14,619 nucleotides of DNA. Source: a virus. This document shows, piece by piece, positions 3-14,619 of the stretch. Position 1 is the stretch's first letter. Each line of letters begins with the position of its first letter. The position numbers and the translations under genes are program-made. Location: the UHGV virus genome UHGV-1690626; one strand, written 5' to 3'. The notes below the pieces were generated by a model. The model was not told the origin of the DNA. It saw only the letters and a list, made by a program, of their open reading frames with translations, and made no database searches.

Positions 3-629
3 CACATACGCTTCCCCGGGCTGAAGGATTTTGTTAGAGACGCGGGTGTTTATAACCGGGATACGTTCAGGAATGTTGTAAACGTAAACCATTTTAATTC
101 ATCAGCTGAATACGAAAATGCTATTGCCCGGGGGCATGACGGCACAGCCAAAAGCCCCCTGGGGATGAGCATCAGGTATCGTTACGAGATAACTGATGAA
201 CTGGGTGTTATAGCCTCTTTTACATGGGCGCGCTCCATGACTAATGCGCAGGCATTTATTGATATTAACCCAGGAGATGAATCCAGAGAGGTTAAAAATC
301 CGGCAGCTTCAGCGAGAACTGATATCAGGGCTAATTACTGGAGCCTGTTAGCGGGTCCTTCGTGGCGGTTTAACGAATACCTCAGTGTGTATGCAATGGC
401 TGGTATGGGCGTAGCTAAAGTTACCGCTGACCTGAAAATTAAGGACAACATTAACAGTACCGGTGGATTTTCTGAAAGCAACAGTACGAAAAAAACAGCA
501 CTTGCATGGGCTGCTGGTGCACAATTTAACCTGAATGAAAGTGTTGCTATGGATGTCGCGTATGAAAGCTCCGGATCTGGTGACTGGCGCACGAGCGGGG
601 TTGTTGTAGGTATTGGCCTGAAATTCTGA
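3..629 (+). CDS. lom: Lom/Ail/PagC-family outer-membrane beta-barrel protein, 5'-partial in this window
   Basis: Frame-3 translation aligns by eye with lambda Lom and Yersinia Ail along its length (IRYRYEITDELGVIASF, YWSLLAGPSWRFNEYLSVYAMAGMG, C-terminal SSGSGDWRTSGVVVGIGLKF ending in an aromatic residue). The frame is open back to nt 3 with no in-frame ATG/GTG/TTG before the ATG at 165 and no signal-peptide-like stretch, so the true N-terminus is either outside the window or lost. Stop TGA at 627-629. Confidence 0.8.
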   Translation, partial: HIRFPGLKDFVRDAGVYNRDTFRNVVNVNHFNSSAEYENAIARGHDGTAKSPLGMSIRYRYEITDELGVIASFTWARSMTNAQAFIDINPGDESREVKNPAASARTDIRANYWSLLAGPSWRFNEYLSVYAMAGMGVAKVTADLKIKDNINSTGGFSESNSTKKTALAWAAGAQFNLNESVAMDVAYESSGSGDWRTSGVVVGIGLKF

Positions 630-651
630 TCTGTATCCGACAACATGTCAT

Positions 652-680
652 AACCCGCTGTGATGGCGGGTTTTTTGTTG
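652..680 (+). terminator. Rho-independent terminator downstream of lom
   Basis: Stem CCCGC (654-658) / GCGGG (666-670) with a 7-nt loop, flanking A-T pairs, then TTTTTTG (671-677), starting 23 nt after the lom stop. Confidence 0.7.
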
Positions 681-706
681 CCCGTGCAGGGCAAAAATCG
701 TAGATT
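678..706 (+). promoter_or_regulatory. Candidate sigma70 promoter for the hok-like transcript
   Basis: TTGCCC (678-683), 17-nt spacer, TAGATT (701-706); 4/6 match to consensus in each hexamer. Its position would give a leader of about 150 nt before the hok-like ORF. Hexamer matching by eye only. Confidence 0.25.
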
Positions 707-861
707 ATGCGCGGGTGCCTTTCGGCTGATGGCTGGAGGGAGAACCTGAAGGCCTGATGTGGAAAGGCCCCGAGTCAAACATTTTGTTTAACCCGAGGCC
801 CTAACCATCATACCTTAAGCAAGTAGAAGGTTAGCGCCTCTCCACTCAGGAGACAAGCGTT

Positions 862-1002
862 ATGTCGCAAAAATCGCTCATCACCGTCACAATTTGTATG
901 ACGGTAATCTTCACCATCTGGATGTTACACGGCTCGTTGTGTGAGTTCCGGCTGAATTTGTGGGGAGCGGAGTTTGCGGCGTTCTTACAGTGTAAGCAGT
1001 AG
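862..1002 (+). CDS. hok: Hok/Gef-family type I toxin (46 aa small membrane peptide)
   Basis: Not in the ORF track (too short). ATG at 862 preceded by AGGAGA (848-853) with 8-nt spacing. Product MSQKSLITVTICMTVIFTIWMLHGSLCEFRLNLWGAEFAAFLQCKQ has an N-terminal hydrophobic helix followed by the SLCE.R ... E.AAF..C pattern I recognise from Hok/Gef/HokA-type toxins. Stop TAG 1000-1002. Confidence 0.6.
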   Translation: MSQKSLITVTICMTVIFTIWMLHGSLCEFRLNLWGAEFAAFLQCKQ

Positions 1003-1013
1003 GAAAACCGCGA

Positions 1014-1035
1014 CGGGGACGAAAGTCCCCGTCAA
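1014..1035 (+). promoter_or_regulatory. GC-rich stem-loop 12 nt after the hok-like stop, candidate mRNA 3' structure
   Basis: GACGGGGA (1014-1021) / TCCCCGTC (1028-1035) perfect 8-bp stem with loop CGAAAG and no U-tract after it. Hok-family mRNAs are known to end in a structured 3' region; the assignment here is by position only. Confidence 0.35.
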
Positions 1036-1058
1036 CTGGTTGCTGAGGTTCAGCCGAT

Positions 1059-1460
1059 ATGGCACCCGTTTCAGGTGAGAGAATGGACGACAGAATTCTC
1101 CGGTATATGCAGCGTGTTGTGAGAAATTCCCGCAACCCTGAATTTATGAATGAAGTTAAAGACGCCTGCCTTAAAAAGCAGGCGTTTTGCTTTGAAGCGC
1201 CGGATGGTTTTCTGGTGCTGCGTTCTGTGCTCAGTGACGATGGTATCCCTTATGTTCTGGTGTTGCTGGGTGTGTGTACGGGGTGTGCCGGTGTTGAGCG
1301 TTATCTGCCGGAGGTGAAGACATTAACCCGCCTGGCTGGCGGACGCTGGGCCGAATTTCATACGGCAAGACGAGGATTTATCCGGCTGGGAAAACGTCTG
1401 GGCTTTGAGCGAATGCCGGATGATGAGGATGGCTTCATGGTGTTCAGGATAGCAGTCTGA
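1059..1460 (+). CDS. Hypothetical 133-aa protein with C-x6-C ... C-x2-C cysteine pattern
   Basis: ORF track ORF; GAGG 10 nt upstream of ATG 1059 (alternative in-frame ATGs at 1083, 1107, 1146). Cysteines at about aa 37, 44, 73 and 76 (VCTGCAG). No family recognised. Confidence 0.5.
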   Translation: MAPVSGERMDDRILRYMQRVVRNSRNPEFMNEVKDACLKKQAFCFEAPDGFLVLRSVLSDDGIPYVLVLLGVCTGCAGVERYLPEVKTLTRLAGGRWAEFHTARRGFIRLGKRLGFERMPDDEDGFMVFRIAV

Positions 1461-1512
1461 CTGCCACTGTATTCATCATCGAGCGTAAACCCACATTGCA
1501 ATTCACATTCTG

Positions 1513-1537
1513 ACCCTGCTCCGGCAGGGTTTTTTGT
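1513..1537 (+). terminator. Rho-independent terminator immediately upstream of the RBS of the five-gene module
   Basis: CCCTGC (1514-1519) / GCAGGG (1524-1529) with loop TCCG, then TTTTTTG (1530-1536); followed by GAGGAG (1543-1548) and ATG at 1554. Confidence 0.7.
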
Positions 1538-1553
1538 TATCTGAGGAGCCATT

Positions 1554-2210
1554 ATGGGCGGAAGTAAAGGTGGTGGTGATACCAAAGTAAAACCAACAGC
1601 AGCGCAAATAGCACAGGAAGAGGTGGCCTGGAAAGGGTGGCAGGATTACAAAAATATTCTCCGTCCGGCAGAAGATAACTTCATGAAAAAGGTCGATGAC
1701 CTTAACAGTGAGCAGCAGTACGAAAATATCGCAGGCACAACAAATCTTGGGTATCAGAAACAGTTTGGTGAAGCGCGAAGGGAGCTGGCGGGTAATCTTG
1801 CTCAGTCCGGCGTTGACCCATCCAGTGGTCGTTTTAATGCAGTAATGGATGCAAATCAAAGCGACCAGGTGATCGGGCAGATTGACACGACCACACGGGG
1901 GCAGGTATCGCAGGCAGATAAATATATTGCCGGGCTACAGGATGTTGCGGCTCTCGGTTCCGGTCAGAAGGCAGATGCGTTACAGAGTTTTAACTCCCTG
2001 GCTGACAGCAGTCTGGCAAAAGCCAAATCGGATGCACAGGCGGCGTTTACGAAACAACAGGGGCGAGCTTCTCTTGTTGGCGCTGGTCTGGGAGCTGTAG
2101 GTGCGTACGCGATGCATAAGGCTGGCGGTAACGGAGGTGGTGGCGGCGCTAAAACGCCAGGCACCGGCGCTAATGCTATTCAGCATCAGGCTCAGAACTG
2201 GAGACTGTAA
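1554..2210 (+). CDS. Hypothetical 218-aa protein, Gly-rich with a C-terminal glycine-zipper-like hydrophobic segment; first gene of the module
   Basis: GAGGAG SD 5 nt upstream of ATG. C-terminal LVGAGLGAVGAYAM followed by GGNGGGGG. Stop lies 2 nt before the next start codon. Confidence 0.75.
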   Translation: MGGSKGGGDTKVKPTAAQIAQEEVAWKGWQDYKNILRPAEDNFMKKVDDLNSEQQYENIAGTTNLGYQKQFGEARRELAGNLAQSGVDPSSGRFNAVMDANQSDQVIGQIDTTTRGQVSQADKYIAGLQDVAALGSGQKADALQSFNSLADSSLAKAKSDAQAAFTKQQGRASLVGAGLGAVGAYAMHKAGGNGGGGGAKTPGTGANAIQHQAQNWRL

Positions 2211-2212
2211 TT

Positions 2213-2659
2213 ATGGAGTATGGCAAATACGAAACTCTCGCAAGGGCTGGTTATTCAGGCGCAGCCCGCCCACAGGGTGACTGGCAGACATCCGCCGCGC
2301 TGACACGCCAGCAATACGACGACTGGCGAACCAGATATTTGCCCCGCGTGGCAAGGCTGGCTGACCTTGGTGAGAACAACAGCCTGATGAATGCACAGCT
2401 TGCCCGGGTGGGCGGCCTTGCCACTTCCAGTCTCCGTACAGCGCAGATGGCGCAGGATAACCAGATGGCACGATATGGCGTTAACCGACCTGATAATCCC
2501 AACAGTAATACGCTGGGGTTACGTAATGCCCTGGCAATTGCTGGCGCGAAAAATGGTATCCGTGAAGCAGAGCAGGATCGTCAGATGAACATACTGACGG
2601 GGGCTTCTGCACCTGCAAGACAGCAACTGAGTGTTGGCGGACAACTGGTGTCAGCTTAA
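2213..2659 (+). CDS. Hypothetical 148-aa protein (Gln/Arg/Ala-rich), translationally coupled
   Basis: ATG 2 nt after the upstream stop; GGAGA about 10 nt upstream inside the previous gene. No family recognised. Confidence 0.7.
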   Translation: MEYGKYETLARAGYSGAARPQGDWQTSAALTRQQYDDWRTRYLPRVARLADLGENNSLMNAQLARVGGLATSSLRTAQMAQDNQMARYGVNRPDNPNSNTLGLRNALAIAGAKNGIREAEQDRQMNILTGASAPARQQLSVGGQLVSA

Positions 2660-2668
2660 GGAGGAAAT

Positions 2669-2920
2669 ATGGGATACGGTTTACTGGATATTGCGAATCA
2701 GTCACGTCGAGAGGCATTACAGGGAATAAGTGACGCCGACAGGCGACGTGAAGAAATTGAGGCTGCTAACAAGCAGATGGCGGCGCAACAGAAAGCGCAG
2801 AACAAACAGAATATCGGCACGGGAATTGGTACGGGTGCAGCTATGGGCGCTGCTGTTGGTGGTCTCCCCGGTGCGGCTATTGGTGCTGTCATAGGTGGTA
2901 TTGCTGGTTCTTTGTTTTAA
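2669..2920 (+). CDS. Small 83-aa protein: charged coiled-coil N-terminus plus C-terminal glycine-zipper (GxxxG) membrane segment
   Basis: AAGGAGG SD ahead of ATG 2669. C-terminal GTGIGTGAAMGAAVGGLPGAAIGAVIGGIAGSLF is a textbook glycine-zipper hydrophobic helix. Confidence 0.75.
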   Translation: MGYGLLDIANQSRREALQGISDADRRREEIEAANKQMAAQQKAQNKQNIGTGIGTGAAMGAAVGGLPGAAIGAVIGGIAGSLF

Positions 2921-2930
2921 GGAGTGGTGA

Positions 2931-4196
2931 ATGAGCGGATTTGCACAGGGTTTACTTGCCGGATTCAGCACGGTTGACCAGGCAATGACCCGTCGTAAGG
3001 AACTTGGTTTGCGAGAAGCACAGCTTGCTCAACAACAGAAAAATAACGAGCGCGATTTTGAATTTGCACAGTCGCAGTTTGAACATAATAAAGACGTTGA
3101 TCAGCGGAACTTTGATTACAGAGCCAAAGTCGACGACCGTAATTATGCACTGCAGGAAAGGGAGTTTAACGCCAACCAGAATTACCGGAATGCGTCGCTG
3201 GGTATGGAGCAGCAGCGACTCCGGATGCAGAAATACAACCAGCGACGGCTTGAGTATAACGATATGCTGGCGCGCGATCAGCCTGTGATGGCGGCGCTTG
3301 GAAAGGCTGTGGATGCTGGCGATCGGGATGCAGCAATGCGTCTTTACGGCCAGTTGTCAGAGGGTAATCCGCTGAGGCTGATGGCGAATGATGGCTATGT
3401 AGCGAAAGCGGGTCAGGCCGTGAACAACCTGCAAAAAATCTTTGATGACAAGCCGGACAGGGCTATCGCTTCACTTAATACGCCGGAGAATCTTGATGTC
3501 CTTTCCGGGGTGTTTGGCCCGGAACTGCAACAGCGTATTGGCATGCCCGATTCAACCGGGAAAAAGACGATAAAAGAGGCCAGGATTGGCAGTATCGTAC
3601 CGGCGCAGCAGGAAGGGTACGTACTTATTGGCCTTGATCTCACATACAGCGATGGCTCCACCGCGCATAAACCTGTAACAGAATACGGCAGTGCACATCC
3701 TGATGATCAAACCGTGCTGGCGGTGCCTGTTGATAAGGCTGTTGAGCTTGTCAGGGATCGCAGTAAATTCGCGGAAATTTCGAAAAATTTCGGCTATTTC
3801 ACGCCGAAGCAGCAGGGACTTTCTCTGGCGAAACTTCAGGAAGGAGCCAGCAGTGTAGCGGCGGAAGCGATCAAGAACGGCGGGAATGCTCAGGCGGCGG
3901 TGGATGAGTATTACGCTGCAACTGGTTCACCGCAACATCAGCAGAAAATTCAGCAGCAAAAAATTCAACAAGGGATTACCAGTTGGGCGGGTGATGATCC
4001 GGATAAGCAGGCATTCGCCAGAGAAGTTGCTTCCCGTCAGCCAGAAATGCTGGAGCCTCAGAATCAGAAATTGCTGGAAAACGGGTATGCGAATTTTCTC
4101 CGTATTCAAAAGGCTAAGGGGGAACAGGCCAGAGATGATAGTGCGGCCTCTGCATCTGAGTTTATCCGTGGTCTGAAACAGAATTACGCGCAGTAA
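2931..4196 (+). CDS. Hypothetical 421-aa protein with Gln/Arg-rich predicted coiled-coil N-terminal third
   Basis: AAGGAG SD ahead of ATG 2931, which is the first in-frame start after a TGA. Contains the QQKIQQQKIQQ repeat (nt about 3942-3975). No enzymatic motif recognised. Confidence 0.75.
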   Translation: MSGFAQGLLAGFSTVDQAMTRRKELGLREAQLAQQQKNNERDFEFAQSQFEHNKDVDQRNFDYRAKVDDRNYALQEREFNANQNYRNASLGMEQQRLRMQKYNQRRLEYNDMLARDQPVMAALGKAVDAGDRDAAMRLYGQLSEGNPLRLMANDGYVAKAGQAVNNLQKIFDDKPDRAIASLNTPENLDVLSGVFGPELQQRIGMPDSTGKKTIKEARIGSIVPAQQEGYVLIGLDLTYSDGSTAHKPVTEYGSAHPDDQTVLAVPVDKAVELVRDRSKFAEISKNFGYFTPKQQGLSLAKLQEGASSVAAEAIKNGGNAQAAVDEYYAATGSPQHQQKIQQQKIQQGITSWAGDDPDKQAFAREVASRQPEMLEPQNQKLLENGYANFLRIQKAKGEQARDDSAASASEFIRGLKQNYAQ

Positions 4197-4264: not shown

Positions 4265-7200
4265 ATGGCTTATTCCGATGAACAGCGCCCTGAAGCGCAA
4301 TTTGGCAACCAGAACCGCAACAGCCTGAACATTCAGCAGCCGGGCGAGACTGACAGCTATGATGCGTTTTTCTCCGATCCCAATCGCTGGAAGGACAACA
4401 GCACGTCGTTCAGCCTGGGCGATGTATTGCCAACTATGGGGAAAGGTGTCGCCCAGTCCATCCGGGGGACAGGGGAAATGGCCCGTGGACTCGGTGATGC
4501 GATGATTCAGAGTCCTGTAAAAACAGGGGCGCGTATTTTAAATGAGTTCAGCCGTATGGGGCTGCCGGGAGTCGCAACTGTTCAGGATATTTTTGTCGGT
4601 GGCAGCAAGGGGGCGGATGAGGTCATCGACACTCTGCCTGATGGAAAAAATGCGGTTACTGATACTGTCGGTAAAGGTCTGAAGGCCACAGGCAAGGCAG
4701 TCAGTGATGGTGCCAAAGCCTCGGATGAATGGCTGACAGATCAGATGTCGCCGGGTGCTGTTCGTGCGCTGAACACGCCAATGAGTGAAGGCTATGATGA
4801 TTCTGCGGTCTTGCTGACGAAGGGTGTAAACCTGATTGGTGCGCTTGTACCTGATCTGGTTGCAGGCGGTGTGACTAAAAAGCTGGGTGAAGTCACTCTG
4901 CGAAAAGTGCTGACCGCCGGGCTGGAGAAAAAATACATTGCGGCAGGGATGCAGCCGGAAAGAGCTACCGCACTGGCAGCAGAAGCTGTCGATAAAAAAA
5001 TGCCGGATTTATTCCAGGCAGGCCTGATCACCCATTCCTCAGCCAGCGCACAGGGGCAGAGTGCAATGGCAGCAGCAGACTCTGTTCTTAACGCGGATTA
5101 CTCTGAGCTGGCGAAGTCCCCGAAATTTCAGCAGACGTTTTTGTCAATTGATGCAGATCCGCAGCACGCACAGCTTACTGATCGCCAGAAAATGGATCTG
5201 GCAAAAGAGCGTGTTGCCGATGAGGTGCGCGCGCAGCTGGCAACCGATCCTCAGTTGCTGGCTGTGAATGCCATGGCGGCAAAACTGGGCGATGCACAGT
5301 TGCTTAATCTGGCGATGCGGGGTACGGCGAAGACCGTTAAGAGCGGCATTATCAGAAACGCCACAGAACAGGGCGTAATTAACGGGGCGCAGGGCGGCTA
5401 TTCGCGTTACCAGGAAAATATGGCGTTGCGTGAGACCGCCGGAATGGATGTGTCGCCGTGGGAGGGCGTGGCTGACGCAACAATCGACGGTGCTGCTCTT
5501 GGTGCAGCGATGGGGGCTCCATTTGGCGCGGTTGCCGGATATCGTGGCAGACGTCAGGCCGCAGACGAAGCCGCCATGCGTGAGGCTGAAGTCGTACAGC
5601 AGGGTGAAGCAGCCCCGCAACCCGAACCGGTTGATCCGGTGGCACAGCATCGTGAATCCATGCAGGGCATGAACCGCGAGCAGCTTCTGGAACAGTATGC
5701 TGATGCGGATATGGCACATGAGGGAGACACGTCTGCCGTTCATCGCCGGGAAGCCGCCAGCCAGCTGTTAAATGAACTGGATGAACAGGCGAAGCGACAG
5801 GCGGTGATGGATGAGCTGAAGGCGAAGCCGCGCCCTGAACTGCTTGAGGAATACCGAAAACTCAGCCTGAAGGAAGGGCGTACTGATACTGAAGAGCAGC
5901 AGTTACAGGCTATCCGTGATGTGCTTCGCCCTCAGCAGGAGGCCAGACCGGAGGCACAGCCACAGCCGGAAAATGCGGATGATGGCGACGGGAGTATTTA
6001 CCCGACGGTGCGGTTCCGCGATCCGGATGAAGTTCGTATTGAAATTAACGGGAGTGGTGCGTCCAGACCAGCAGAACGCATTGAAAAGGTGCGTCCGGAC
6101 AACCGTTATTTCACGGATGAAAAAAGTGCTCTGGGGAGCGACGTTTTCCGCAATGCCAGCGCCACCGGCCTGAAACCGTCCGTAGTGAAGAAAGGCGAGA
6201 ATCAGTATGCCGTTGAAATGGATAATCCTGCGTTCTCTGAAGATGTGGCAACGGAGACCATTAACACTCTGGCTGACGGAGAGCGTATTACTGATGCTGA
6301 TCCGATGGAACAGCCCGCGTTCATGCGTGACCCGCGATTCCGTGGTTTCACGGGGGATGATACAGAAGTGCAGGCCCGCCTTGCCCGTGGCAACGCGCCG
6401 ACGGCAGAGGAGCTTGTACGTTCACAGATGGCTGAAGGTGATGCCGGTCCGACAGCACAGGAGTTAACTGAGCGTCCACGCCTTCCCGCTCCCGGCGATA
6501 TTCATCCCGGACAGGGATATCCGTTACCAGGAGAAGTGGCGCGTACGCCGGATGAAAATCAGGCCGGACGTGGTGGTCGTTTTACCACAACCGGTGAGGT
6601 GAAGGGCCAGAGTTTCCAGAAAGGACGTGCGCAGGCACCGGAAAATGCCGCTGGTCGCCAGGGGGAAATACTGGAGGGCGAACCGGTTCGTCGTGGTCTG
6701 CCGTCACCGGATGAGCAGAACGCCACAGCACCAGTGCGTGAAGGACTTCCTGCACCTGAACAGCGTGGGGTTGATATGCCACATCCTGAATCACTCCCTC
6801 GTATGGTTCGTGACTCCCTTCCGGAACTGGCACAGCAGGCAGAAGCGCGCAGACAGACCGGGGATAATCGCCAGACCATAACCGATGTTCCGGATACTGA
6901 GGTGCCGGTGCCGGTGCCGGTAGATAAACCGAGCACTCACCAGCAGGCGCGTGGTGCAAAAATAGAAGACTTTGGCGAGGAGATTAAGGGCGCGGCAAAA
7001 CACCGTTATGCACAGCTTGCCGAAACACTGGGTAAAACGCTGGAAGACAGGGATTATGTCACGCAACCGCTGAGCAAACTGTTCCCGAAACCGGACTACG
7101 CAAAACTGGCGAACGAAGGTGCCGATGCTGATACCCTGGCAATGATAGCGCTGTATCGTAGCGATATTCCGGCGAAGACGAAACACAATACGGCTGGCTG

Positions 7201-10200
7201 GGGGGAGAGCGTAAAAAAAGTACGACACAGTGTATCGGAAATGCTGAACGGAACGGTCAGCGCGAAACGCCTCGCAGAATGGATGGAAGGCAGAATGCCC
7301 TCCCGTTACGCGGATACCTGGCAACTGTTACGCACGCTGCCACCTTCACAGATGGACAAGGCTTCTGCTTATCGGGTGGTATCGGGTGTGTATCAGGCGG
7401 CAGGAGGGAAGCGTTACGATCCGCCACAGAAACTTTATTCACTGCGCAATAAGGACAATAAGGGGACTAACCTCTTTTTCTCGGAAAGCAGGGATGAATT
7501 ACTGACAAAGGCGAAAGTCTGGTTTGCAGAGCTGGAGGAAAAGTCACAGGCGAAAGGTGATGAAAAAACAGCACCGTCACCGGATGACAAAATCAGCTTT
7601 GACGTTTACCGGAATACCCGCAGTGGCGATATTTTTATCGCTTATGGCAAAAACAAAATGCGGGTGAGAGGTGGCTTTAAGTCAGCCAGTGATGCGCGTA
7701 AGTACATTGATTCACATCGTGATGAGCTTGTTCGTCATGTGAAGGAGATGCGGGAGATTTCGCGTGAGGAGCAGCGTAACGCCACCAACCGCGATCGTAC
7801 CGGACCAGAACGCCGCAAGGGGGATGTTTCGCCGGAGCAGTTCAGTGATGCGTTTGGTTTTCGTGGTGTGCAGTTTGGTAATTATGTGGAAGGTCCGCGT
7901 CGTCAGGCTGATTTGAACCGGGCTTATGACTCGCTGCATGACCTGGCTGATGTGCTGAACGTGCCGACAAAAGCGCTTTCTCTGAACGGTCGTCTTGGGC
8001 TTGCTTTTGGTGCCCGTGGTAAGGGTAAGGCGGCGGCACACTATGAGCCGGGTGAGGTGGCAATCAACCTGACAAAAGGTAACGGACCGGGGGCGCTGGC
8101 CCACGAATGGTTCCATTCACTGGATAATTATTTTGGTCGTTATGATGTTTCCACTGACGGGAAGATCACGTCAGGTGGCGACTATATGACGGAAGCACAG
8201 CGTGCCGGGCGCGTATTTAAAGACGGCAGATATGTTGATGCGGAATATCCGGTACGTCAGGAGGTTTACGACGCGTTTAAAGGCGTGATGAAAGCGATCA
8301 ACAGCAGTGACATGCCGCGTCGTTCAGCGCTTCTCGATGAGGTGCGCTCAAAACCGTACTGGTCAACGGATGTTGAAATGGCGGCGCGTGCCTTTGAGCG
8401 TTATGTTCAGGATAAAGCGCGTACGGCTGGCGTGGAGAATGATTATCTGGTCAATATCCGTAAGGCACCTGAGCACAACACAGATAACACCTGGGCTTAT
8501 CCGACGAATGCGGAACTGGATGGTGGCATTCGTGAGGCATTCGATCACCTGTTCCGCACCCTGAAAACCCGTGAGACGGACAAGGGCGTTGCGTTTTATT
8601 CCCGTAAGGGCGTGACCCGCACACCTGAAGGCAATCTCATTTCGGATGTTAACCGCAGTGCGGAAGCCAAAGGCAGCCCGGTCCCGCAGGTTGAAGCGGT
8701 TGCCCGTGGCGTGATGAGTGGCATTAAGGACAGTGACCTGAAGGTCCGCGTGGTGAAGTCACAGAAAGAGGCTGAAGCACTGGCGGGTGAATCATTCGAC
8801 GGTTACGGCAAGGTGCACGCGTTCTATCGTCCGGATAAACGTGAAATTGTCCTGGTGGCGGATAACATTCCTGACGGGCGGACCGTTCGCGAGAAGCTGC
8901 GTCACGAGATTATCCACCATGCAATGGAGCATGTAGTCACGCCAGCGGAATATCAGACGATTATTAAGACCGTACTGAAAACCCGTGACAGTGATAACGC
9001 CACCATCCGTGAAGCCTGGCGTAAGGTTGATGCGTCTTATGGTAAGGAATCACCGGAAGTGCAGGCGGGTGAATTTCTGGCACATATGGCGGAGAAACAG
9101 CCGAATAAATTCGTGGCGGCATGGGAGCGTGTTGTTGCCCTGGTCAAAGGGGTACTGCGTCGCACGGGGTTACTGAAGCCGACAGAGCTGAACGATATCA
9201 GACTTGTTCGCGAAACTATTCGCACGTTAGGCCAGCGTGTGCGGGAAGGTTACACGCCGCGTGAGGATGGCGCTGGCGCATCGTCTCAGTACTCCCGTAG
9301 CGGTAAGCCTGATCCGTTCAAAGTGCCGGAAGGTGAGGGCGAGCGTTATCGTGATGACCTTGCCAGAATGATGAAGTCTCTGCGCTCAACGGATTTAACG
9401 GTAAACATCGGGCGTACGCCGCCGGTATTGCGTCACCTTGGCGCACCAGATTTGCCGCTGGTTATCTCCCGCGACACTGTGCGTAAGGCCACCAATGGTG
9501 TGAAACATGTGGTGCCGATGGATGTTATCGAGAGACTACCGGAACTGATGCACGATCCGGATGCAATTTACCGTTCCGCGACAGAAAGAAATGCGGTTGT
9601 GATGCTGCTTGATGCCATGGATAAAAATGGTGATCCTGTAGTGTCAGCGGTACACATGAAGGCTGTCCGGTCGCGCCTGGAAATCAACAAGGTAGCTTCA
9701 GTTTACGGTACAGAAAATGGAAAAAAACTGAAGAGTATGGAAATGACCGGGTTAACGTTGTACCGGAGAGAAAAATTAAGCCGCGATAACCTTCTGCACA
9801 GAGGGCTTCAATTGCCCAAAGGGGAACATTCTTATCGCGGCTCTGCGGATAAAATACTCTATCCTGAAGATATTCGCAAGGGGCCGCATTACTCCCGTAC
9901 CAGCAGTCTGACACCGGAAGAGACAATTGCATCGCGTTTTGTGCGCCAGATGCAGGATAAATTCCAGGTGCTGAAAGCTGTTCAGGAGAATATCCGTAAA
10001 ACTGGCGGAAAAATAGACGACAGTAACAACGCTTATATGGCAGAAGAACTCTTCCACGGGAAGGCGGAAAACGACCTGAACGTGATGAAGGAGCGCTATG
10101 TTCAGCCGCTGGCTAAATTACTGGCGGACTACAAAATTGCGCAGGCCGATCTGGATGAGTACCTCTACGCCCGTCACGCGCCGGAACGTAACGCGCATAT

Positions 10201-12634
10201 CGCGAAAATCAACCCGAAAATGCCGGACGGCGGTTCGGGGATGACCAACGCGGAAGCGGCGGAAATCATGCAGCGTGTGCGTAACAGTGGCAAACAGGCA
10301 CAGTATGACCGTCTGGCAGGGATTGTTGACGATATGCTGGCCCGTCGCCGTGAGCTTATCCGTGAGGCCGGACTGGAAGAGAGCGGTGTGGTGGATGCCT
10401 GGCAGAAAGCCTACCGTTACTACGTTCCCCTGAAAGGGCAGGATGTTGACGGTGTGGTGTCACTGCCCCGTACAGGTAAAGGCTTCACTATCGGCGGACG
10501 TGAAAGCAGGCAGGCCATGGGGCGTGCATCCCGCGCACAGTCTCCTTCCACTCAGGCGATACAGGATTTGAGCGAATCGCTGATCCGCAATCGCAAAAAT
10601 GAAGTGGGTAACGCCTTCCTGAAACTGGTACAGGATAATCCAGACAAGGATTACTGGCAGGTATTCACCAATGAGCGACCGGACACCATGCGTGCGATTG
10701 CAGAGCGTGTTGTTCCGGAAACCGGTGAAACCCGTCACGAAGTTGTCGAACGTCCTGTACCGATGGCAATGATGGCAGACCGGTACTTCACCACCAAAAA
10801 GAACGGCAAAACGTACTACATCAAACTCCATGATCCGCGCCTGATGCGTGCGATGAAGAATATGGGACCGGAAACCAGTAACGCCGTAATCCGCACGCTG
10901 GGGAAAGTTAACCGCTTCCTGGCAACGGTGAACACGTCGTATAACCCGGAATTTCTGGTCAGTAACTTCATCCGTGACGTGCAGACGGCGGTGATGAACC
11001 TGAAGGCGGAGCAGGGAAGGAGCGACGGTAAACTGAAAGGGCTGGATAACTTATCCGCCCTGGCTGTGGTGAAAGACAGCCGTTCTGCCATGTCAGCCGT
11101 ATACGCCAGTCTGCGTGGTAAAACCCTCACGGGCAAAGGCGCACAGTGGCAGAAAGTGTGGAAAGAGTTTGTTGAGGACGGAGGTAAAACCGGCTGGTTT
11201 AACATGGGTGACCTTGAAGGCCAGCAGAAGGAAATGGATCGCCTTGTATCGCTGGCGAAGGGAGGATGGAAAGGCCAGAGTATCGGTGCATGGAATTCGT
11301 TCCTTAACCTTGTCGAGGATGCCAACGGTGCGGTTGAAAACGCTCTGCGTCTTTCTGCCTATAAACACGCCCGTGATGCTGGTTTGTCACGCCAGCAGGC
11401 GGCGTCTCTTGCCAAAAACATGACGGTGAACTTTAACCGTCGTGGTGAGCAGGGAGCGCTGATGAACTCGCTGTATATGTTTGCCAACGCCAGCATTCAG
11501 GGGACCGCAAACCTGGTGAGAACGCTCGGACATCTTAATGGCGACGGGCCGTTACCGGAGCGCCTTCGCTGGAAGAATCTCAATGTACCGCAGAAAATCG
11601 CGCTTGCAGCTGTGGGAGCGGGTTATCTGCTTGGCTCGCTTAACCGCAGTGTTGCGGGGGAGGATGATGACGGGGTTAACTGGTATGACAAGGTGCCGTC
11701 TCATGTGAAAGAGCGTAACCTCGTCATTATGAAATCGGTGTTCGGGGGCAAGGCCGGAGAGTACTGGAGTATTCCTCTGCCTTACGGGTACAACGTTTTC
11801 TTCCTGCTCGGGCATACTGCTGAAGGTGTGGCAGCGGGCGACCTGACTGCTTCACGTGCTGCCGGTAATGTTGTCGGTGGTATCCTGGGGGCATTCAGTC
11901 CTGTGGGCAGTGAAACGTCGGAAACACTGTCCGGGGCATTGCTGAAAAATGCAGCGCCGACCATTCTGCGTCCGTTTGCGAACCTTGCCATGAATGAAAA
12001 CTTCATGGGGGCGCAGATTTACCAGGAGAACATGCCATTTGGCACACCGAAACCGGACAGCCAGCTGGGCAGACGTTCAACGCCTGAGGCGTACAAGGCG
12101 TTTGCATCCTGGCTGAATGCGTTCTCAGGTGGCAGCCAGTATCGTCCCGGCGCGGTGGATATCACACCGGAATCGCTGAAATTCTGGATTGACTATATCT
12201 CCGGAGGGACAGGGCGCTTCATTTCCAAAACCACAGATGCGGCGGTGAAATCGCTGAACGGTATTGATATACCGGAGCAGCAGGTGCCCTTCCTGGGGAA
12301 AATTTCGGGTGAGGTGATGCCGTATGCTGACCAGCAGAAGATGTATGACCGGATGACGGAGGTTGCGCAGTACCACGCAGAGCTGAAGAGTCTGACCGGT
12401 GCAGAAAGAACGGCATTCATTGACGAGAACAACGGAAAATTGTCGATGAACGGGCTTATGCAGGATACCCGGAAGAGACTGAAGGATTTGCGTAAACAAC
12501 GTGATGCCATTTACGCCGACAGTACTCTCAGTCTGGCGCAACAGTCGGCGATGGTGAAATCGGTAGAGCGGGATATGAAAATTGCCGTGGATCGGTTTAA
12601 CCGCGAGTACAACAAAAAAGTGGGAGTGGATTAA
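4265..12634 (+). CDS. Giant 2,789-aa multidomain protein with two HExxH zincin-like motifs; candidate virion-delivered polyvalent or ejection protein
   Basis: Uninterrupted 8,370-nt ORF with GGAG 6 nt upstream. ALAHEWFHSLD at aa 1280-1284 (nt 8102-8116) and LRHEIIHHAMEH at aa 1547-1551 (nt 8903-8917). Acidic Pro/Glu/Gln/Arg-rich low-complexity stretch at aa about 430-900. Glycine-zipper-like segment IDGAALGAAMGAPFGAVAGY at aa about 405-425. Hydrophobic/Gly-rich stretches in the C-terminal 700 aa. No Walker A, DEAD-box or single-subunit RNA polymerase motifs seen by eye. Reality of the CDS is high confidence; function is inference. Confidence 0.85.
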   Translation: MAYSDEQRPEAQFGNQNRNSLNIQQPGETDSYDAFFSDPNRWKDNSTSFSLGDVLPTMGKGVAQSIRGTGEMARGLGDAMIQSPVKTGARILNEFSRMGLPGVATVQDIFVGGSKGADEVIDTLPDGKNAVTDTVGKGLKATGKAVSDGAKASDEWLTDQMSPGAVRALNTPMSEGYDDSAVLLTKGVNLIGALVPDLVAGGVTKKLGEVTLRKVLTAGLEKKYIAAGMQPERATALAAEAVDKKMPDLFQAGLITHSSASAQGQSAMAAADSVLNADYSELAKSPKFQQTFLSIDADPQHAQLTDRQKMDLAKERVADEVRAQLATDPQLLAVNAMAAKLGDAQLLNLAMRGTAKTVKSGIIRNATEQGVINGAQGGYSRYQENMALRETAGMDVSPWEGVADATIDGAALGAAMGAPFGAVAGYRGRRQAADEAAMREAEVVQQGEAAPQPEPVDPVAQHRESMQGMNREQLLEQYADADMAHEGDTSAVHRREAASQLLNELDEQAKRQAVMDELKAKPRPELLEEYRKLSLKEGRTDTEEQQLQAIRDVLRPQQEARPEAQPQPENADDGDGSIYPTVRFRDPDEVRIEINGSGASRPAERIEKVRPDNRYFTDEKSALGSDVFRNASATGLKPSVVKKGENQYAVEMDNPAFSEDVATETINTLADGERITDADPMEQPAFMRDPRFRGFTGDDTEVQARLARGNAPTAEELVRSQMAEGDAGPTAQELTERPRLPAPGDIHPGQGYPLPGEVARTPDENQAGRGGRFTTTGEVKGQSFQKGRAQAPENAAGRQGEILEGEPVRRGLPSPDEQNATAPVREGLPAPEQRGVDMPHPESLPRMVRDSLPELAQQAEARRQTGDNRQTITDVPDTEVPVPVPVDKPSTHQQARGAKIEDFGEEIKGAAKHRYAQLAETLGKTLEDRDYVTQPLSKLFPKPDYAKLANEGADADTLAMIALYRSDIPAKTKHNTAGWGESVKKVRHSVSEMLNGTVSAKRLAEWMEGRMPSRYADTWQLLRTLPPSQMDKASAYRVVSGVYQAAGGKRYDPPQKLYSLRNKDNKGTNLFFSESRDELLTKAKVWFAELEEKSQAKGDEKTAPSPDDKISFDVYRNTRSGDIFIAYGKNKMRVRGGFKSASDARKYIDSHRDELVRHVKEMREISREEQRNATNRDRTGPERRKGDVSPEQFSDAFGFRGVQFGNYVEGPRRQADLNRAYDSLHDLADVLNVPTKALSLNGRLGLAFGARGKGKAAAHYEPGEVAINLTKGNGPGALAHEWFHSLDNYFGRYDVSTDGKITSGGDYMTEAQRAGRVFKDGRYVDAEYPVRQEVYDAFKGVMKAINSSDMPRRSALLDEVRSKPYWSTDVEMAARAFERYVQDKARTAGVENDYLVNIRKAPEHNTDNTWAYPTNAELDGGIREAFDHLFRTLKTRETDKGVAFYSRKGVTRTPEGNLISDVNRSAEAKGSPVPQVEAVARGVMSGIKDSDLKVRVVKSQKEAEALAGESFDGYGKVHAFYRPDKREIVLVADNIPDGRTVREKLRHEIIHHAMEHVVTPAEYQTIIKTVLKTRDSDNATIREAWRKVDASYGKESPEVQAGEFLAHMAEKQPNKFVAAWERVVALVKGVLRRTGLLKPTELNDIRLVRETIRTLGQRVREGYTPREDGAGASSQYSRSGKPDPFKVPEGEGERYRDDLARMMKSLRSTDLTVNIGRTPPVLRHLGAPDLPLVISRDTVRKATNGVKHVVPMDVIERLPELMHDPDAIYRSATERNAVVMLLDAMDKNGDPVVSAVHMKAVRSRLEINKVASVYGTENGKKLKSMEMTGLTLYRREKLSRDNLLHRGLQLPKGEHSYRGSADKILYPEDIRKGPHYSRTSSLTPEETIASRFVRQMQDKFQVLKAVQENIRKTGGKIDDSNNAYMAEELFHGKAENDLNVMKERYVQPLAKLLADYKIAQADLDEYLYARHAPERNAHIAKINPKMPDGGSGMTNAEAAEIMQRVRNSGKQAQYDRLAGIVDDMLARRRELIREAGLEESGVVDAWQKAYRYYVPLKGQDVDGVVSLPRTGKGFTIGGRESRQAMGRASRAQSPSTQAIQDLSESLIRNRKNEVGNAFLKLVQDNPDKDYWQVFTNERPDTMRAIAERVVPETGETRHEVVERPVPMAMMADRYFTTKKNGKTYYIKLHDPRLMRAMKNMGPETSNAVIRTLGKVNRFLATVNTSYNPEFLVSNFIRDVQTAVMNLKAEQGRSDGKLKGLDNLSALAVVKDSRSAMSAVYASLRGKTLTGKGAQWQKVWKEFVEDGGKTGWFNMGDLEGQQKEMDRLVSLAKGGWKGQSIGAWNSFLNLVEDANGAVENALRLSAYKHARDAGLSRQQAASLAKNMTVNFNRRGEQGALMNSLYMFANASIQGTANLVRTLGHLNGDGPLPERLRWKNLNVPQKIALAAVGAGYLLGSLNRSVAGEDDDGVNWYDKVPSHVKERNLVIMKSVFGGKAGEYWSIPLPYGYNVFFLLGHTAEGVAAGDLTASRAAGNVVGGILGAFSPVGSETSETLSGALLKNAAPTILRPFANLAMNENFMGAQIYQENMPFGTPKPDSQLGRRSTPEAYKAFASWLNAFSGGSQYRPGAVDITPESLKFWIDYISGGTGRFISKTTDAAVKSLNGIDIPEQQVPFLGKISGEVMPYADQQKMYDRMTEVAQYHAELKSLTGAERTAFIDENNGKLSMNGLMQDTRKRLKDLRKQRDAIYADSTLSLAQQSAMVKSVERDMKIAVDRFNREYNKKVGVD
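6902..6919 (+). repeat. In-frame tandem hexanucleotide repeat (GTGCCG)x3 encoding VPVPVP
   Basis: ggtgccggtgccggtgccggta read directly in the sequence, inside the low-complexity region of the giant gene. Confidence 0.9.
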
Positions 12635-12642
12635 CAGAAATG

Positions 12643-12664
12643 GCCCCGTACGGAAGTGCGGGGC
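12643..12664. other. Strong hairpin with GGAA tetraloop 9 nt after the giant gene stop
   Basis: GCCCCGTAC / GTGCGGGGC 9-bp stem (one G-U pair) with loop GGAA. No U-tract on the plus strand; a modest U-rich stretch follows on the minus strand. Confidence 0.5.
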
Positions 12665-12757
12665 TGATTAAGAAATAAACACACATTAACCTGTTATAAC
12701 CGGAGCTATTAACATATAGTCAGAAAGAGTATTTCATGTGAGACAGAGAGCCGATTT

Positions 12758-12949
12758 ATGTTTAATGAAGAAAAAGTTGCGTAAATGGCAGCGTATTTGC
12801 TGAAAAAGCATGGCGGATCTATGCGTTTCATTAAGCTGATGAAGCTGATGTATCTCTCTGACCGCAAAGCAATGGAGTCTTTAACCGGGAAGGGGAGAGG
12901 TTTGAATGCTCCCCCACAATTCCCCGGCATCAAATCTCCATGCAGGTGA
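12758..12949 (+). pseudogene. Degraded remnant resembling the N-terminus of a Panacea (DUF4065)-domain protein
   Basis: ATG 12758 gives MFNEEKVA, then an in-frame TAA (12782-12784), then MAAYLLKKHGGSMRFIKLMKLMYLSDRKAMESLTG. This matches the remembered N-terminal pattern of Panacea-domain proteins (KLxKLxY), but the downstream part of the domain is missing and the frame ends at 12949. Confidence 0.3.
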
Positions 12950-13023
12950 TCTATTTTACCCCCAGCGGCAAATCAGTGCGATCGAAATGGCAGCCACTAC
13001 AATTGCAAATGCTTCAGGCTAGG

Positions 13024-13596
13024 TCATTGGCGTACCTCCTTCGGCGGTTCTGGTAGCGGCATCCAGTGGGTTACTTCTTTGAGATGCAGGTCTTCGCCAT
13101 CACCGTCATCCCAAGTGGGATTGCCATCATTAAACCAGTCGCCATATACGCCGACCTGAGTGTTGGGGATGCTTGGTGGGTAGTTGTTTTTAAAGTCAGC
13201 TGCTAACACATAGTATTGTCGCTCTCCCATTTCTGGCATCCGCTCACTACAGCTTATCCAACTATCCGGAGTTCCCGGAGAGTTGCCATTTACATCGAAG
13301 TTTGGCTCTGCGTCCTGAACCAGGAGGATGTAACCATTCTTGGCAGTATCAAGTTCTAACGCCTCGGTGACGGTGCCGAAATAGCGATTACCTAAATCAG
13401 CATCACAAGTGCTTACATCAATGGAAACTTCCATGCCCTCGATTAATTCTGGCAAGTTGTAAGTTTGGCTTACAGGTTCGGCTTCCAGAGATGCCAGCGC
13501 AATCCGTGCAAGTTCCATTTGTTCGCCACGGGTAAGTCCGTTATCAAGCGGATTTTTAATGAATAATTCGATACGTTCTTTGGTTATAGCGCTCAT
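13024..13596 (-). CDS. DUF551-domain phage protein (190 aa)
   Basis: C-terminal LKEVTHWMPLPEPPKE matches the W-x-P-L-P-E-P-P signature I associate with DUF551 proteins of lambdoid early regions. ATG at 13596 with AAGGAG SD chosen over the TTG at 13677 reported in the ORF track. Start lies 1 nt after the upstream gene's stop. Confidence 0.65.
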   Translation of the reverse strand: MSAITKERIELFIKNPLDNGLTRGEQMELARIALASLEAEPVSQTYNLPELIEGMEVSIDVSTCDADLGNRYFGTVTEALELDTAKNGYILLVQDAEPNFDVNGNSPGTPDSWISCSERMPEMGERQYYVLAADFKNNYPPSIPNTQVGVYGDWFNDGNPTWDDGDGEDLHLKEVTHWMPLPEPPKEVRQ

Positions 13597-13597
13597 C

Positions 13598-14383
13598 TCA
13601 CTCTCCTTTGATACGAATGCCCGCGGCGTGTGGCACATTAACTTCCACGATGCGCACTGTTGGTTTGTACATCTCAATCGCTGTCAGCCAGTCAGCTCCT
13701 GTCATGCGCTTTTCCGCATCGCCATTAGTCCACTTAACCGGTACACCAATAGACTTCATCGCGATTTCTATTTCCCCGGCGATGGCGCTTTTTCCGCAAC
13801 CAGTAAAACCAGATACAACGACAAGAACTTCGCCTTTGGCTGGTTTTATTTCCCGTGCTTCCTGCCCTGATTTGCGCAGCAAAACAGCGTACTTTAATGC
13901 GTCCTGGGCTTTCTGAAATTTCAGTGCATAGTCAGTGGCGATTTTCTCCAGTTCAGCAATACGCTTACTCCCATCCGAGATAACACCTTCGTAATACTCA
14001 CGCTGCTCGTTGAGTTTTGATTTTGTCTCCTCAAGCTCAACGCGCAGCTTCCCTACCGTTAGCGCAATATCCTCGTTCTCCTGGTCGCGGCGTTTGATGT
14101 ATTGCTGGTTTCTTTCCCGTTCATCCAGCAGTGCCAGCACGGTAGCCGGATTGGCTGCGGCGATGAATTCAGCATTGGCCTGCTGTTCCATTTGGAAATC
14201 TTCATCGAAACCGCTTTCAGGATGTGCTCCTTCAATTCTGCAAATGGGAATATATCCAGCAGCCTCGCGATGAATTAGTGCATCATCACCATCAAATCGG
14301 TTCTCTCCATATTCGAGCGACCACTCACCACGCGTTGCTTTTTCTGCCTTTTCACGCAGTACCTGATAGTTAATCTCGCTCAT
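13598..14383 (-). CDS. Ead/Ea22-like early-region protein (261 aa) with coiled-coil middle and a Walker-A-like motif near the C-terminus
   Basis: N-terminal MSEINYQVLREKAEKATRGEW plus a long charged coiled coil resemble Ea22-like proteins of lambdoid early-left operons. GFTGCGKS (nt about 13777-13800) fits G-x4-G-K-S. ATG at 14383 preferred over the TTG at 14407. Confidence 0.55.
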   Translation of the reverse strand: MSEINYQVLREKAEKATRGEWSLEYGENRFDGDDALIHREAAGYIPICRIEGAHPESGFDEDFQMEQQANAEFIAAANPATVLALLDERERNQQYIKRRDQENEDIALTVGKLRVELEETKSKLNEQREYYEGVISDGSKRIAELEKIATDYALKFQKAQDALKYAVLLRKSGQEAREIKPAKGEVLVVVSGFTGCGKSAIAGEIEIAMKSIGVPVKWTNGDAEKRMTGADWLTAIEMYKPTVRIVEVNVPHAAGIRIKGE

Positions 14384-14619
14384 TTTTCTCTTCGCTCCGG
14401 TATACAAGAATTACAACGTCACCTCTGCTAATTACGCGAGCTGGACCTCCTGGCTCCATGCTGTCAATCCCGAAGGCTTCGGAAAACGCATTCATTGCCT
14501 TCTGGCGTTGATCCTGCTTACGGCATTTATTCCATTTTTTCAGTAACAACAGCGATAGCCACCGCCCGGCGCAGAACATAATGTAAAAATAACCAAGAAG
14601 CGCCAGACCTGTGTTGAGG
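14370..14619 (-). CDS. Hypothetical protein, 3' part only (5' end beyond window), with a hydrophobic stretch
   Basis: Minus-strand frame is open from the window edge to the stop at 14370-14372. Contains LALLGYFYIMFCAGRWLSLLLL. Overlaps the Ea22-like start by 14 nt. Confidence 0.4.
   Translation of the reverse strand, partial: LNTGLALLGYFYIMFCAGRWLSLLLLKKWNKCRKQDQRQKAMNAFSEAFGIDSMEPGGPARVISRGDVVILVYRSEEKNERD

Follow-up and report, generated by a model that had tools for sequence, protein, structure and literature searches.

A truncated panA remnant at a probable late/leftward-block boundary in a 933W/POCJ13-like phage contig

The window analysed here, a stretch of 14,619 nucleotides, is the entire metagenome contig ERZ772849 NODE_2417_length_14619_cov_2.69, with which it is byte-identical over the part compared. 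Both of its ends are assembly ends, and coverage is low (2.7x). The window appears to represent the late end of a temperate podophage of the 933W/POCJ13-like (Sepvirinae) type, and the junction between its late and leftward genes is 95-98% identical to those of 933W-like Stx-type phages and of hundreds of Escherichia coli prophages. The following features were delineated:

3-629, plus strand: gene for a Lom/Ail outer-membrane protein, open from the first bases of the contig, with its 5' end cut
4265-12634, plus strand: giant late gene (2789 aa), the last of the late block, with Pfam matches LPD5, LPD1, MuF_C and LPD38
12635-12671, plus strand: tail of the late module including the hairpin, from comparison across loci
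12642-12665, plus strand: GC-rich hairpin with a 10-bp stem (GGCCCCGUAC / GUGCGGGGCU) and a GGAA loop, found by folding, 7 nt past the stop codon
12666-12757, plus strand: leader and 5' untranslated region of a putative former panA gene, from comparison across loci
12758-12878, plus strand: 5' stub of panA, codons 1-41, from tblastn and phmmer matches to PF13274 proteins
12879-12970, no strand assigned: filler of ~92 bp, present in window-type junctions only
12971-13023, minus strand: 3' flank of the DUF551 cassette, from a match to phage Stx2a_1447
13024-13596, minus strand: DUF551 gene, 190 aa from the ATG at 13596 (Pfam DUF551, 1.6e-19)
13598-14383, minus strand: Ead/Ea22-like gene, 261 aa (Pfam Ead_Ea22, 2.1e-37)
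14370-14619, minus strand: DUF4752 gene, cut by the contig end (Pfam DUF4752, 1.1e-27, profile positions 20-84 of 84)

The product of the giant gene is predicted to be a polyvalent protein of the virion or injected type, and the 3' end of the gene is 95-98% identical to those of the giant genes L0134 of phage 933W and gp71 of phage POCJ13. Between this gene and the Lom/Ail gene, matches were found to five PHROG families of unknown function (610, 611, 596, 594 and 601). The ORF listed at 165-629 is only the part of the Lom/Ail gene that lies past an internal ATG. On the other side of the junction, the listed DUF551 ORF, starting with TTG, extends to 13677; the identical 190-aa protein is encoded in 12 contigs, including LIVA01000060 of E. 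coli.

The gap of interest (12635-13023, 389 bp) is flanked by the TAA stop codon of the giant gene on the plus strand (12632-12634) and by the stop codon of the DUF551 gene on the minus strand (13024-13026). The sequence-only reading had set the end of the giant gene at 12634 and that of the minus-strand DUF551 gene at 13024, and every coordinate holds. It had also described the gap as devoid of integrase, which is borne out by our searches: there is no tRNA in the 14.6-kb window, and no integrase match among the main ORFs screened (Lom/Ail, the five PHROG proteins, the giant protein, the panA stub, DUF551, Ea22 and DUF4752). As to what the gap does contain, the description of a hairpin followed by a truncated, Panacea-like ORF with an in-frame TAA proved accurate, but this TAA is not a disabling lesion, as detailed below. 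No promoter was found in a consensus scan of 12300-13400. The Rfam search of 12400-13300 (E <= 1) returned two sub-threshold chance matches only, and the antisense ORF of 74 aa at 12709-12933 has no match in Pfam.

On the plus strand the hairpin has a predicted folding energy of -20.5 kcal/mol (z = -5.2), and none of 200 shuffled sequences was as stable; on the minus strand the value is -13.5 kcal/mol, a G-U pair turning into an A-C mismatch. The hairpin is invariant across seven aligned loci. The sole variant seen is that of the TW14359 prophage integrated at argW/yfdC (locus L018, ~7080-7105), with the sequence CATGCCCCGTAC-GGAA-GTGCGGGGCATG. The base of its stem differs from that of the window, and the stem is fully paired over 12 bp, so that pairing is kept or extended. 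The stem varies too little among the close relatives for covariation to show, and TW14359 alone differs. At least 80% of the query 12440-12700 is kept in 185 of 186 phage records, and among the matches listed (a sample of 40) the shortest still extend to 12664-12671, beyond the hairpin. The hairpin thus appears to be the terminal element of the conserved late module, the last one that always travels with the giant gene.

The tail that follows the hairpin on the plus strand (UGAUUAAG) is not U-rich and has no U-tract. That on the minus strand (AUUUCUGUU) is U-rich, but the stem is weaker on that strand because of the A-C mismatch. In a terminator scan of 12300-13400 the hairpin was not called on either strand, and the two terminator-like matches inside the stub correspond to chance expectation. 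Late transcription in lambdoid phages is Q-antiterminated, and a terminator is therefore only one of the roles that the hairpin might have. Given the much higher stability on the plus strand, the position 7 nt after the stop codon and the pairing kept in TW14359, the hairpin would most likely act on the late mRNA as a structure for 3'-end protection or termination. Secondarily, it might limit leftward read-through into the giant gene, which the U-rich tail of the minus strand makes possible in spite of the weaker stem. We predict a transcript-end function of some kind for the hairpin, a proposal that may equally well turn out to be right or wrong.

Downstream of the hairpin, the leader (12666-12757) is nearly identical in the window, POCJ13, the E. 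coli strains cM8a and 05-3629, and 933W, as well as in three loci with a long or intact panA gene (L008, L009 and E. coli EC2). The panA stub comes next. The filler that follows supplies the out-of-family tail and the stop codon (12947-12949) of an ORF of 54 or 63 aa; it was seen only in window-type junctions, namely those of POCJ13, phage 75/02 Stx and 43 E. coli genomes. The last part of the gap belongs with the leftward genes: positions 12971-13074 match phage Stx2a_1447 at 84%, and in that phage the matching segment is directly 3' of a minus-strand gene (2105-2911) in the true early-left region adjoining int-xis. Relative to POCJ13, cM8a and 05-3629, the window has a 12-bp deletion near 12979; a 39-mer spanning this deletion had no exact match in the collections genome_contigs and viral_contigs. 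In 12879-13023, no remnant was detected in any frame of the rest of panA, of the 135-aa partner gene described below, of IbrB, or of L0135 and L0136 of 933W, with no match better than E ~0.1.

Translation of the frame 12758-12949 gives MFNEEKVA-stop-MAAYLLKKHGGSMRFIKLMKLMYLSDRKAMESLTGKGRGLNAPPQFPGIKSPCR-stop, the internal TAA being at 12782-12784 (codon 9), and an alternative ATG is present immediately after it, at 12785. The resemblance of this ORF to Panacea-domain proteins, put forward from the sequence alone, is real but indirect, in that the relatives score against PF13274 and the fragment itself does not. Thus, hmmscan of the 63-aa read-through translation against Pfam returned no family at E <= 0.1, and the gathering threshold of PF13274 was not reached. 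In contrast, the first ~40 residues match PF13274-bearing proteins with E-values down to 8e-10 in a search of 5.8 billion sequences (P0008, P0011, P0015-P0018). The stub is 62-70% identical to the full-length, 187-aa PanA proteins of Klebsiella and Yersinia phages, and 90% identical to residues 1-28 of the intact, 174-aa PanA of E. coli EC2, whose gene is found at the same genomic site. One variant of the ORF is already labelled 'Panacea domain-containing protein' by NCBI's pipeline.

The homology to the intact E. coli panA gene stops exactly at 12878. The Pfam domain covers residues 16-127 of EC2 PanA, and the stub retains residues 1-28 of that protein, corresponding to ~13 of the 113 profile positions. 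The complete Panacea domain is therefore absent, ~88% of it being missing. We considered the TAA as the inactivating mutation and rejected it, since the otherwise intact copies of EC2, L008 and L009 carry the same TAA; the annotation of their panA genes begins at the next codon, an ATG equivalent to 12785 in the window. The disabling lesion appears instead to be the loss of everything past codon 41 (12878), as a protein with so few Panacea positions left would be dead. In addition, the stub lacks a co-directional toxin partner, the next gene being the convergent DUF551 gene, and nothing resembling the 135-aa protein encoded next to panA in the Klebsiella and Yersinia phages was detected past the stub (12879-13023).

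Several features point to neutral decay. The stub contains an in-frame, 9-bp tandem repeat, AAGCTGATG (Lys-Leu-Met, 12833-12850), which occurs once in POCJ13, 933W, L008 and L009, twice in the window and in 05-3629, and three times in cM8a. Frameshifted variants of the stub with other tails exist (P0004, P0005 and P0007), and the 12-bp deletion relative to POCJ13 goes in the same direction. The variation in copy number of AAGCTGATG looks like replication slippage. Compared with the PanA proteins of the PanAT systems (Panacea, DUF4065, PF13274; Kurata et al. 2022, PMC8832971), the ORF shows homology to a bona fide PanA over its first 41 codons, but with most of the domain missing, no partner gene and an unrelated tail it would be a pseudogene remnant and not a functional member of the family. 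Comparison of the loci shows the stub to be, as far as its sequence can tell, a non-functional 5' remnant with a fortuitous out-of-family tail.

The best-surviving alternative, which is nevertheless very improbable, is that the 54/63-aa ORF is functional, with the N-terminal helix of PanA joined to a novel tail, and that it modulates, for instance, a PanA/PanT system of the host or of another prophage. The ORF is already catalogued as a PHROG family of its own, phrog_3658, and is in frame in most copies (P0001-P0003), including those of POCJ13, 75/02 Stx, 43 E. coli genomes and several metagenome contigs, and the variation of the 9-bp repeat respects the reading frame. These copies are 95-100% identical, however, which indicates recent common ancestry and not demonstrable selection. 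The ORF comprises only the few Panacea positions mentioned above, its tail matches no known family, and the frameshifted versions have different tails. Moreover, the ORF is cut at codon 27 in 933W-type phages and is wholly absent from other phages.

Analyses of other genomes revealed where the intact gene is found. A panA gene coding for the 174-aa protein WP_032144006.1 occupies this very site in 19 complete E. coli genomes, and EC2 PanA scores 70.7 bits against PF13274, for a cut-off of 25.7. Where panA is intact, as in EC2 (L016, NZ_CP058571, 8916-11384), it is followed by convergent genes coding for an IbrB-like protein and for a PAPS-reductase/DUF3440 (IbrA-like) protein, which replace the DUF551/Ea22 cassette. 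No co-directional toxin gene is found downstream of this intact panA; in EC2 the giant gene, 150 bp upstream, is the only neighbour that runs in its direction. The panA genes of the Klebsiella and Yersinia phages are each followed by a conserved gene coding for a protein of 135 aa (L006, 3068-3475; L007, 3058-3465), which matches phrog_19071 and no Pfam family. This 135-aa protein is a candidate PanT toxin. In YeP2, the pair formed by panA and the 135-aa gene adjoins the integrase gene.

Given this environment, panA might have been, and in the 19 intact cases might still be, the immunity partner of a toxic domain in the giant polyvalent protein, its decay in the window then reflecting the loss of that toxic activity. 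We regard this as even less probable than a functional short ORF. It would fit the position of the EC2 gene, for which the giant gene is the only co-directional neighbour and the IbrB/IbrA genes are convergent, all the more as the homologues of the Klebsiella and Yersinia phages do carry a downstream partner and as PanAT systems can have a toxin-first order (PMC8832971). Nevertheless, about half of the Panacea proteins are not in recognizable two-gene toxin-antitoxin loci (Kurata et al. 2022, PMC8832971), and the orphan state of the intact copies is thus unremarkable. Furthermore, conservation of the giant protein stays at 95-98% regardless of the state of panA (intact, truncated or absent), so that no dependence is visible, and no toxin domain was identified at its C-terminus, where Pfam finds LPD38 only. 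Taken together, it is very doubtful that the hairpin, the panA leader and the short ORF have been kept for a function, be it that of a PanA-derived peptide or one descending from a PanA that originally conferred immunity to the giant protein. Were it so, the unit on the giant-gene end would be a retained one and not a decaying remnant.

Among relatives, homology to the gap ends at nested positions. The end of the giant gene is present in 424 E. coli genomes, and breakpoints were read in an evenly spaced sample of 60 of them:

Homology ends at 12664-12671, just past the hairpin: 33/60, with cargo or host DNA directly after
Homology ends at 12839-12845: 16/60, the 933W type, with a 27-codon stub
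Homology ends at 12878: 3/60, with a long or intact panA
No break: 6/60, the window type
Break elsewhere: 2/60, other

The whole set of 424 genomes agrees with this sample, with 43 window-type junctions and 19 intact panA genes. The nested breakpoints lend support, as far as the PanA stub is concerned, to the earlier suggestion that a module boundary bears a recombination scar here. The slot after the hairpin appears to be a recombination-prone site for variable cargo. An ancestor would have held an intact panA antitoxin gene in this slot, and in the lineage of the window the joining of the DUF551 cassette would have replaced everything after panA codon 41.

The extent of the cargo varies among relatives. 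In TW14359, the host gene yfdC starts ~185 bp past the end of homology, itself just after the hairpin; in strain 10153 a hok fragment is followed by ymdF and rutG; and the records of phages phi24B and PA28 end 69 and 110 bp past the end of homology, respectively. Host DNA can thus begin ~0.2-1 kb after the hairpin, and these ends show that some relatives have att directly after the late block, others carrying up to ~4 kb of cargo.

We then compared the arrangement of the window with those of the phages and prophages closest to it. In Shigella phage POCJ13 (NC_025434, gp71-gp79), the end of the giant gene, the hairpin, the panA stub, the filler and the DUF551 gene are as in the window, at ~95-96% identity, with the same leftward continuation into Ea22 and DUF4752. 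Relative to POCJ13, the window has a TAA at codon 9, two 9-bp repeats instead of one and the above-mentioned deletion near 12979, and the central parts of its DUF551 and Ea22 genes differ. The gene order in POCJ13 is the giant gene, two small ORFs, then the leftward DUF551, Ea22, DUF4752 and Ant genes up to the end of the record. The record opens with int, on the minus strand, and exo, bet, gam, kil, N and cI come after it. Phage 75/02 Stx has its junction in common with the window up to ~13066.

The overall plan of phage 933W (AF125520) is that of the window as well, with the giant gene, the hairpin, the panA leader and first 27 codons, a leftward block and attR in common, and int-xis at the other end. 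More precisely, 4.2 kb of genes, most of them leftward, separate its giant ORF L0134 from the attR core, and attL, int and xis are at the other end. The leftward stretch codes for a YgiW-like protein, hokW/sokW, L0139, L0140, a TraR-like protein and L0142. The homology of 933W to the window breaks at 12845, and L0135, the YgiW/YdeI-like gene and hok/sok occupy the place of the longer stub and filler of the window.

In the complete genomes of the E. coli strains 05-3629, cM8a and EC2, the giant gene is followed by the junction, a leftward block, the Ant gene, a truncated ynfG and ynfF, with attR located in ynfG. The junction of 05-3629 is the same as that of the window, at 96-97% identity, and belongs to a complete prophage, ynfG'-int...Ant-'ynfG. 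At its other end the module is intact, with the order ynfG'-int-DUF4222-exo-bet-gam-recE-kil. The E. coli contig LIVA01000060 is 97.8-98.4% identical to positions 12705-14619 of the window, save for 13878-13945, and continues with genes for DUF4752, TraR, Ant and an AntA fragment, followed by truncated ynfG and ynfF. Mosaicism is high, and no record covers at least 80% of 12300-13700 or of 12635-14619. Wherever a relative has this junction, int and att are beyond a leftward accessory block of 3-4 kb.

The stx genes and the int/attP region of the family arrangement fall outside this contig, and the position of int and att has to be read from the relatives. By synteny, int and att would not have been deleted but would lie beyond the block, some 3.3 kb away from the junction, which puts them ~1.5-1.9 kb beyond the last base of the contig. 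The gap would then represent a normal convergent boundary between the rightward late operon and a leftward accessory block that is placed between the late genes and attP, comprising DUF551, Ea22-like and DUF4752 genes and, in relatives, TraR and Ant genes. In all, the 389-bp gap is very probably the ordinary boundary between the late genes and the leftward block of a 933W/POCJ13-like phage, with int/att beyond the contig and with a panA remnant. Of the explanations offered by the sequence-only reading, that of an integrase located elsewhere is the one favoured by the relatives sharing the junction, which carry int/att past the 3-4 kb block. Its view of the arrangement as anomalous does not stand, as this short region recurs, conserved, in related phages.

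The least probable explanation is that the int-att module has been deleted, with the late and early-left blocks fused in a prophage that is defective and cannot excise: although no integrase or tRNA was found in the 14.6-kb window (main ORFs screened) nor any att-like feature within it, and although genes of the DUF551/EaA type also occur in the true early-left region by int-xis (L0065 of 933W, Stx2a_1447), such that a fusion could look alike, the same junction is found in phages deposited as complete with an integrase (POCJ13 and 75/02 Stx, int being shown for POCJ13) and in a complete prophage flanked by ynfG, the right end of the window is 98% identical to a contig that runs on to Ant and attR, and the window stops solely because the contig stops. 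The case for a defective prophage is thus unsupported, with a complete prophage in 05-3629 and a contig that merely ends 1.6 kb after the junction.

Even lambda would fail a requirement that att and int come right behind the last late gene. In the b region of that phage, the leftward genes ea47, ea31 and ea59 are found between the late genes and attP. When the genome is circular, the leftward transcript reaches the b-region genes after int; integration as a prophage places them at the end opposite int. Finding leftward genes of the 'ea' type right behind the late block is therefore no sign that att is missing. The likeness between the two systems consists in the presence of non-essential leftward genes between the last late gene and attP, the lambda arrangement being established knowledge. 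The gene content differs, DUF551, Ea22, DUF4752, TraR and Ant being found here, and the likeness proposed is one of position.

The architecture of this locus, already known from 933W/POCJ13-type phages, is not novel; a pseudogene remnant occupies a cargo slot prone to recombination. The absence of int/att from a short 933W-like contig should not be taken as the mark of a defective prophage. In the Stx-type family, 0-4 kb of variable leftward cargo are found between the late genes and attP, and depending on the lineage the slot is occupied by panA, hok/sok, a YgiW-like gene, IbrAB or DUF551/Ea22 cassettes. The breakpoints are consistent with the known mosaicism of these medically important phages and may be useful for comparative work on them; beyond correct annotation, the importance of the locus is little.

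Lastly, the DUF551 and Ea22 genes are themselves mosaic (13280-13940). Their central parts are unmatched in POCJ13 and 05-3629, and their ends match at 96-98%. Similarly, ~68 bp of the Ea22 gene (13878-13945) are unmatched in LIVA01000060, which is otherwise 98% identical. On the minus strand, the stop codon of the Ea22 gene (13598-13600) and the ATG of the DUF551 gene (13594-13596) are one base apart, which suggests translational coupling.
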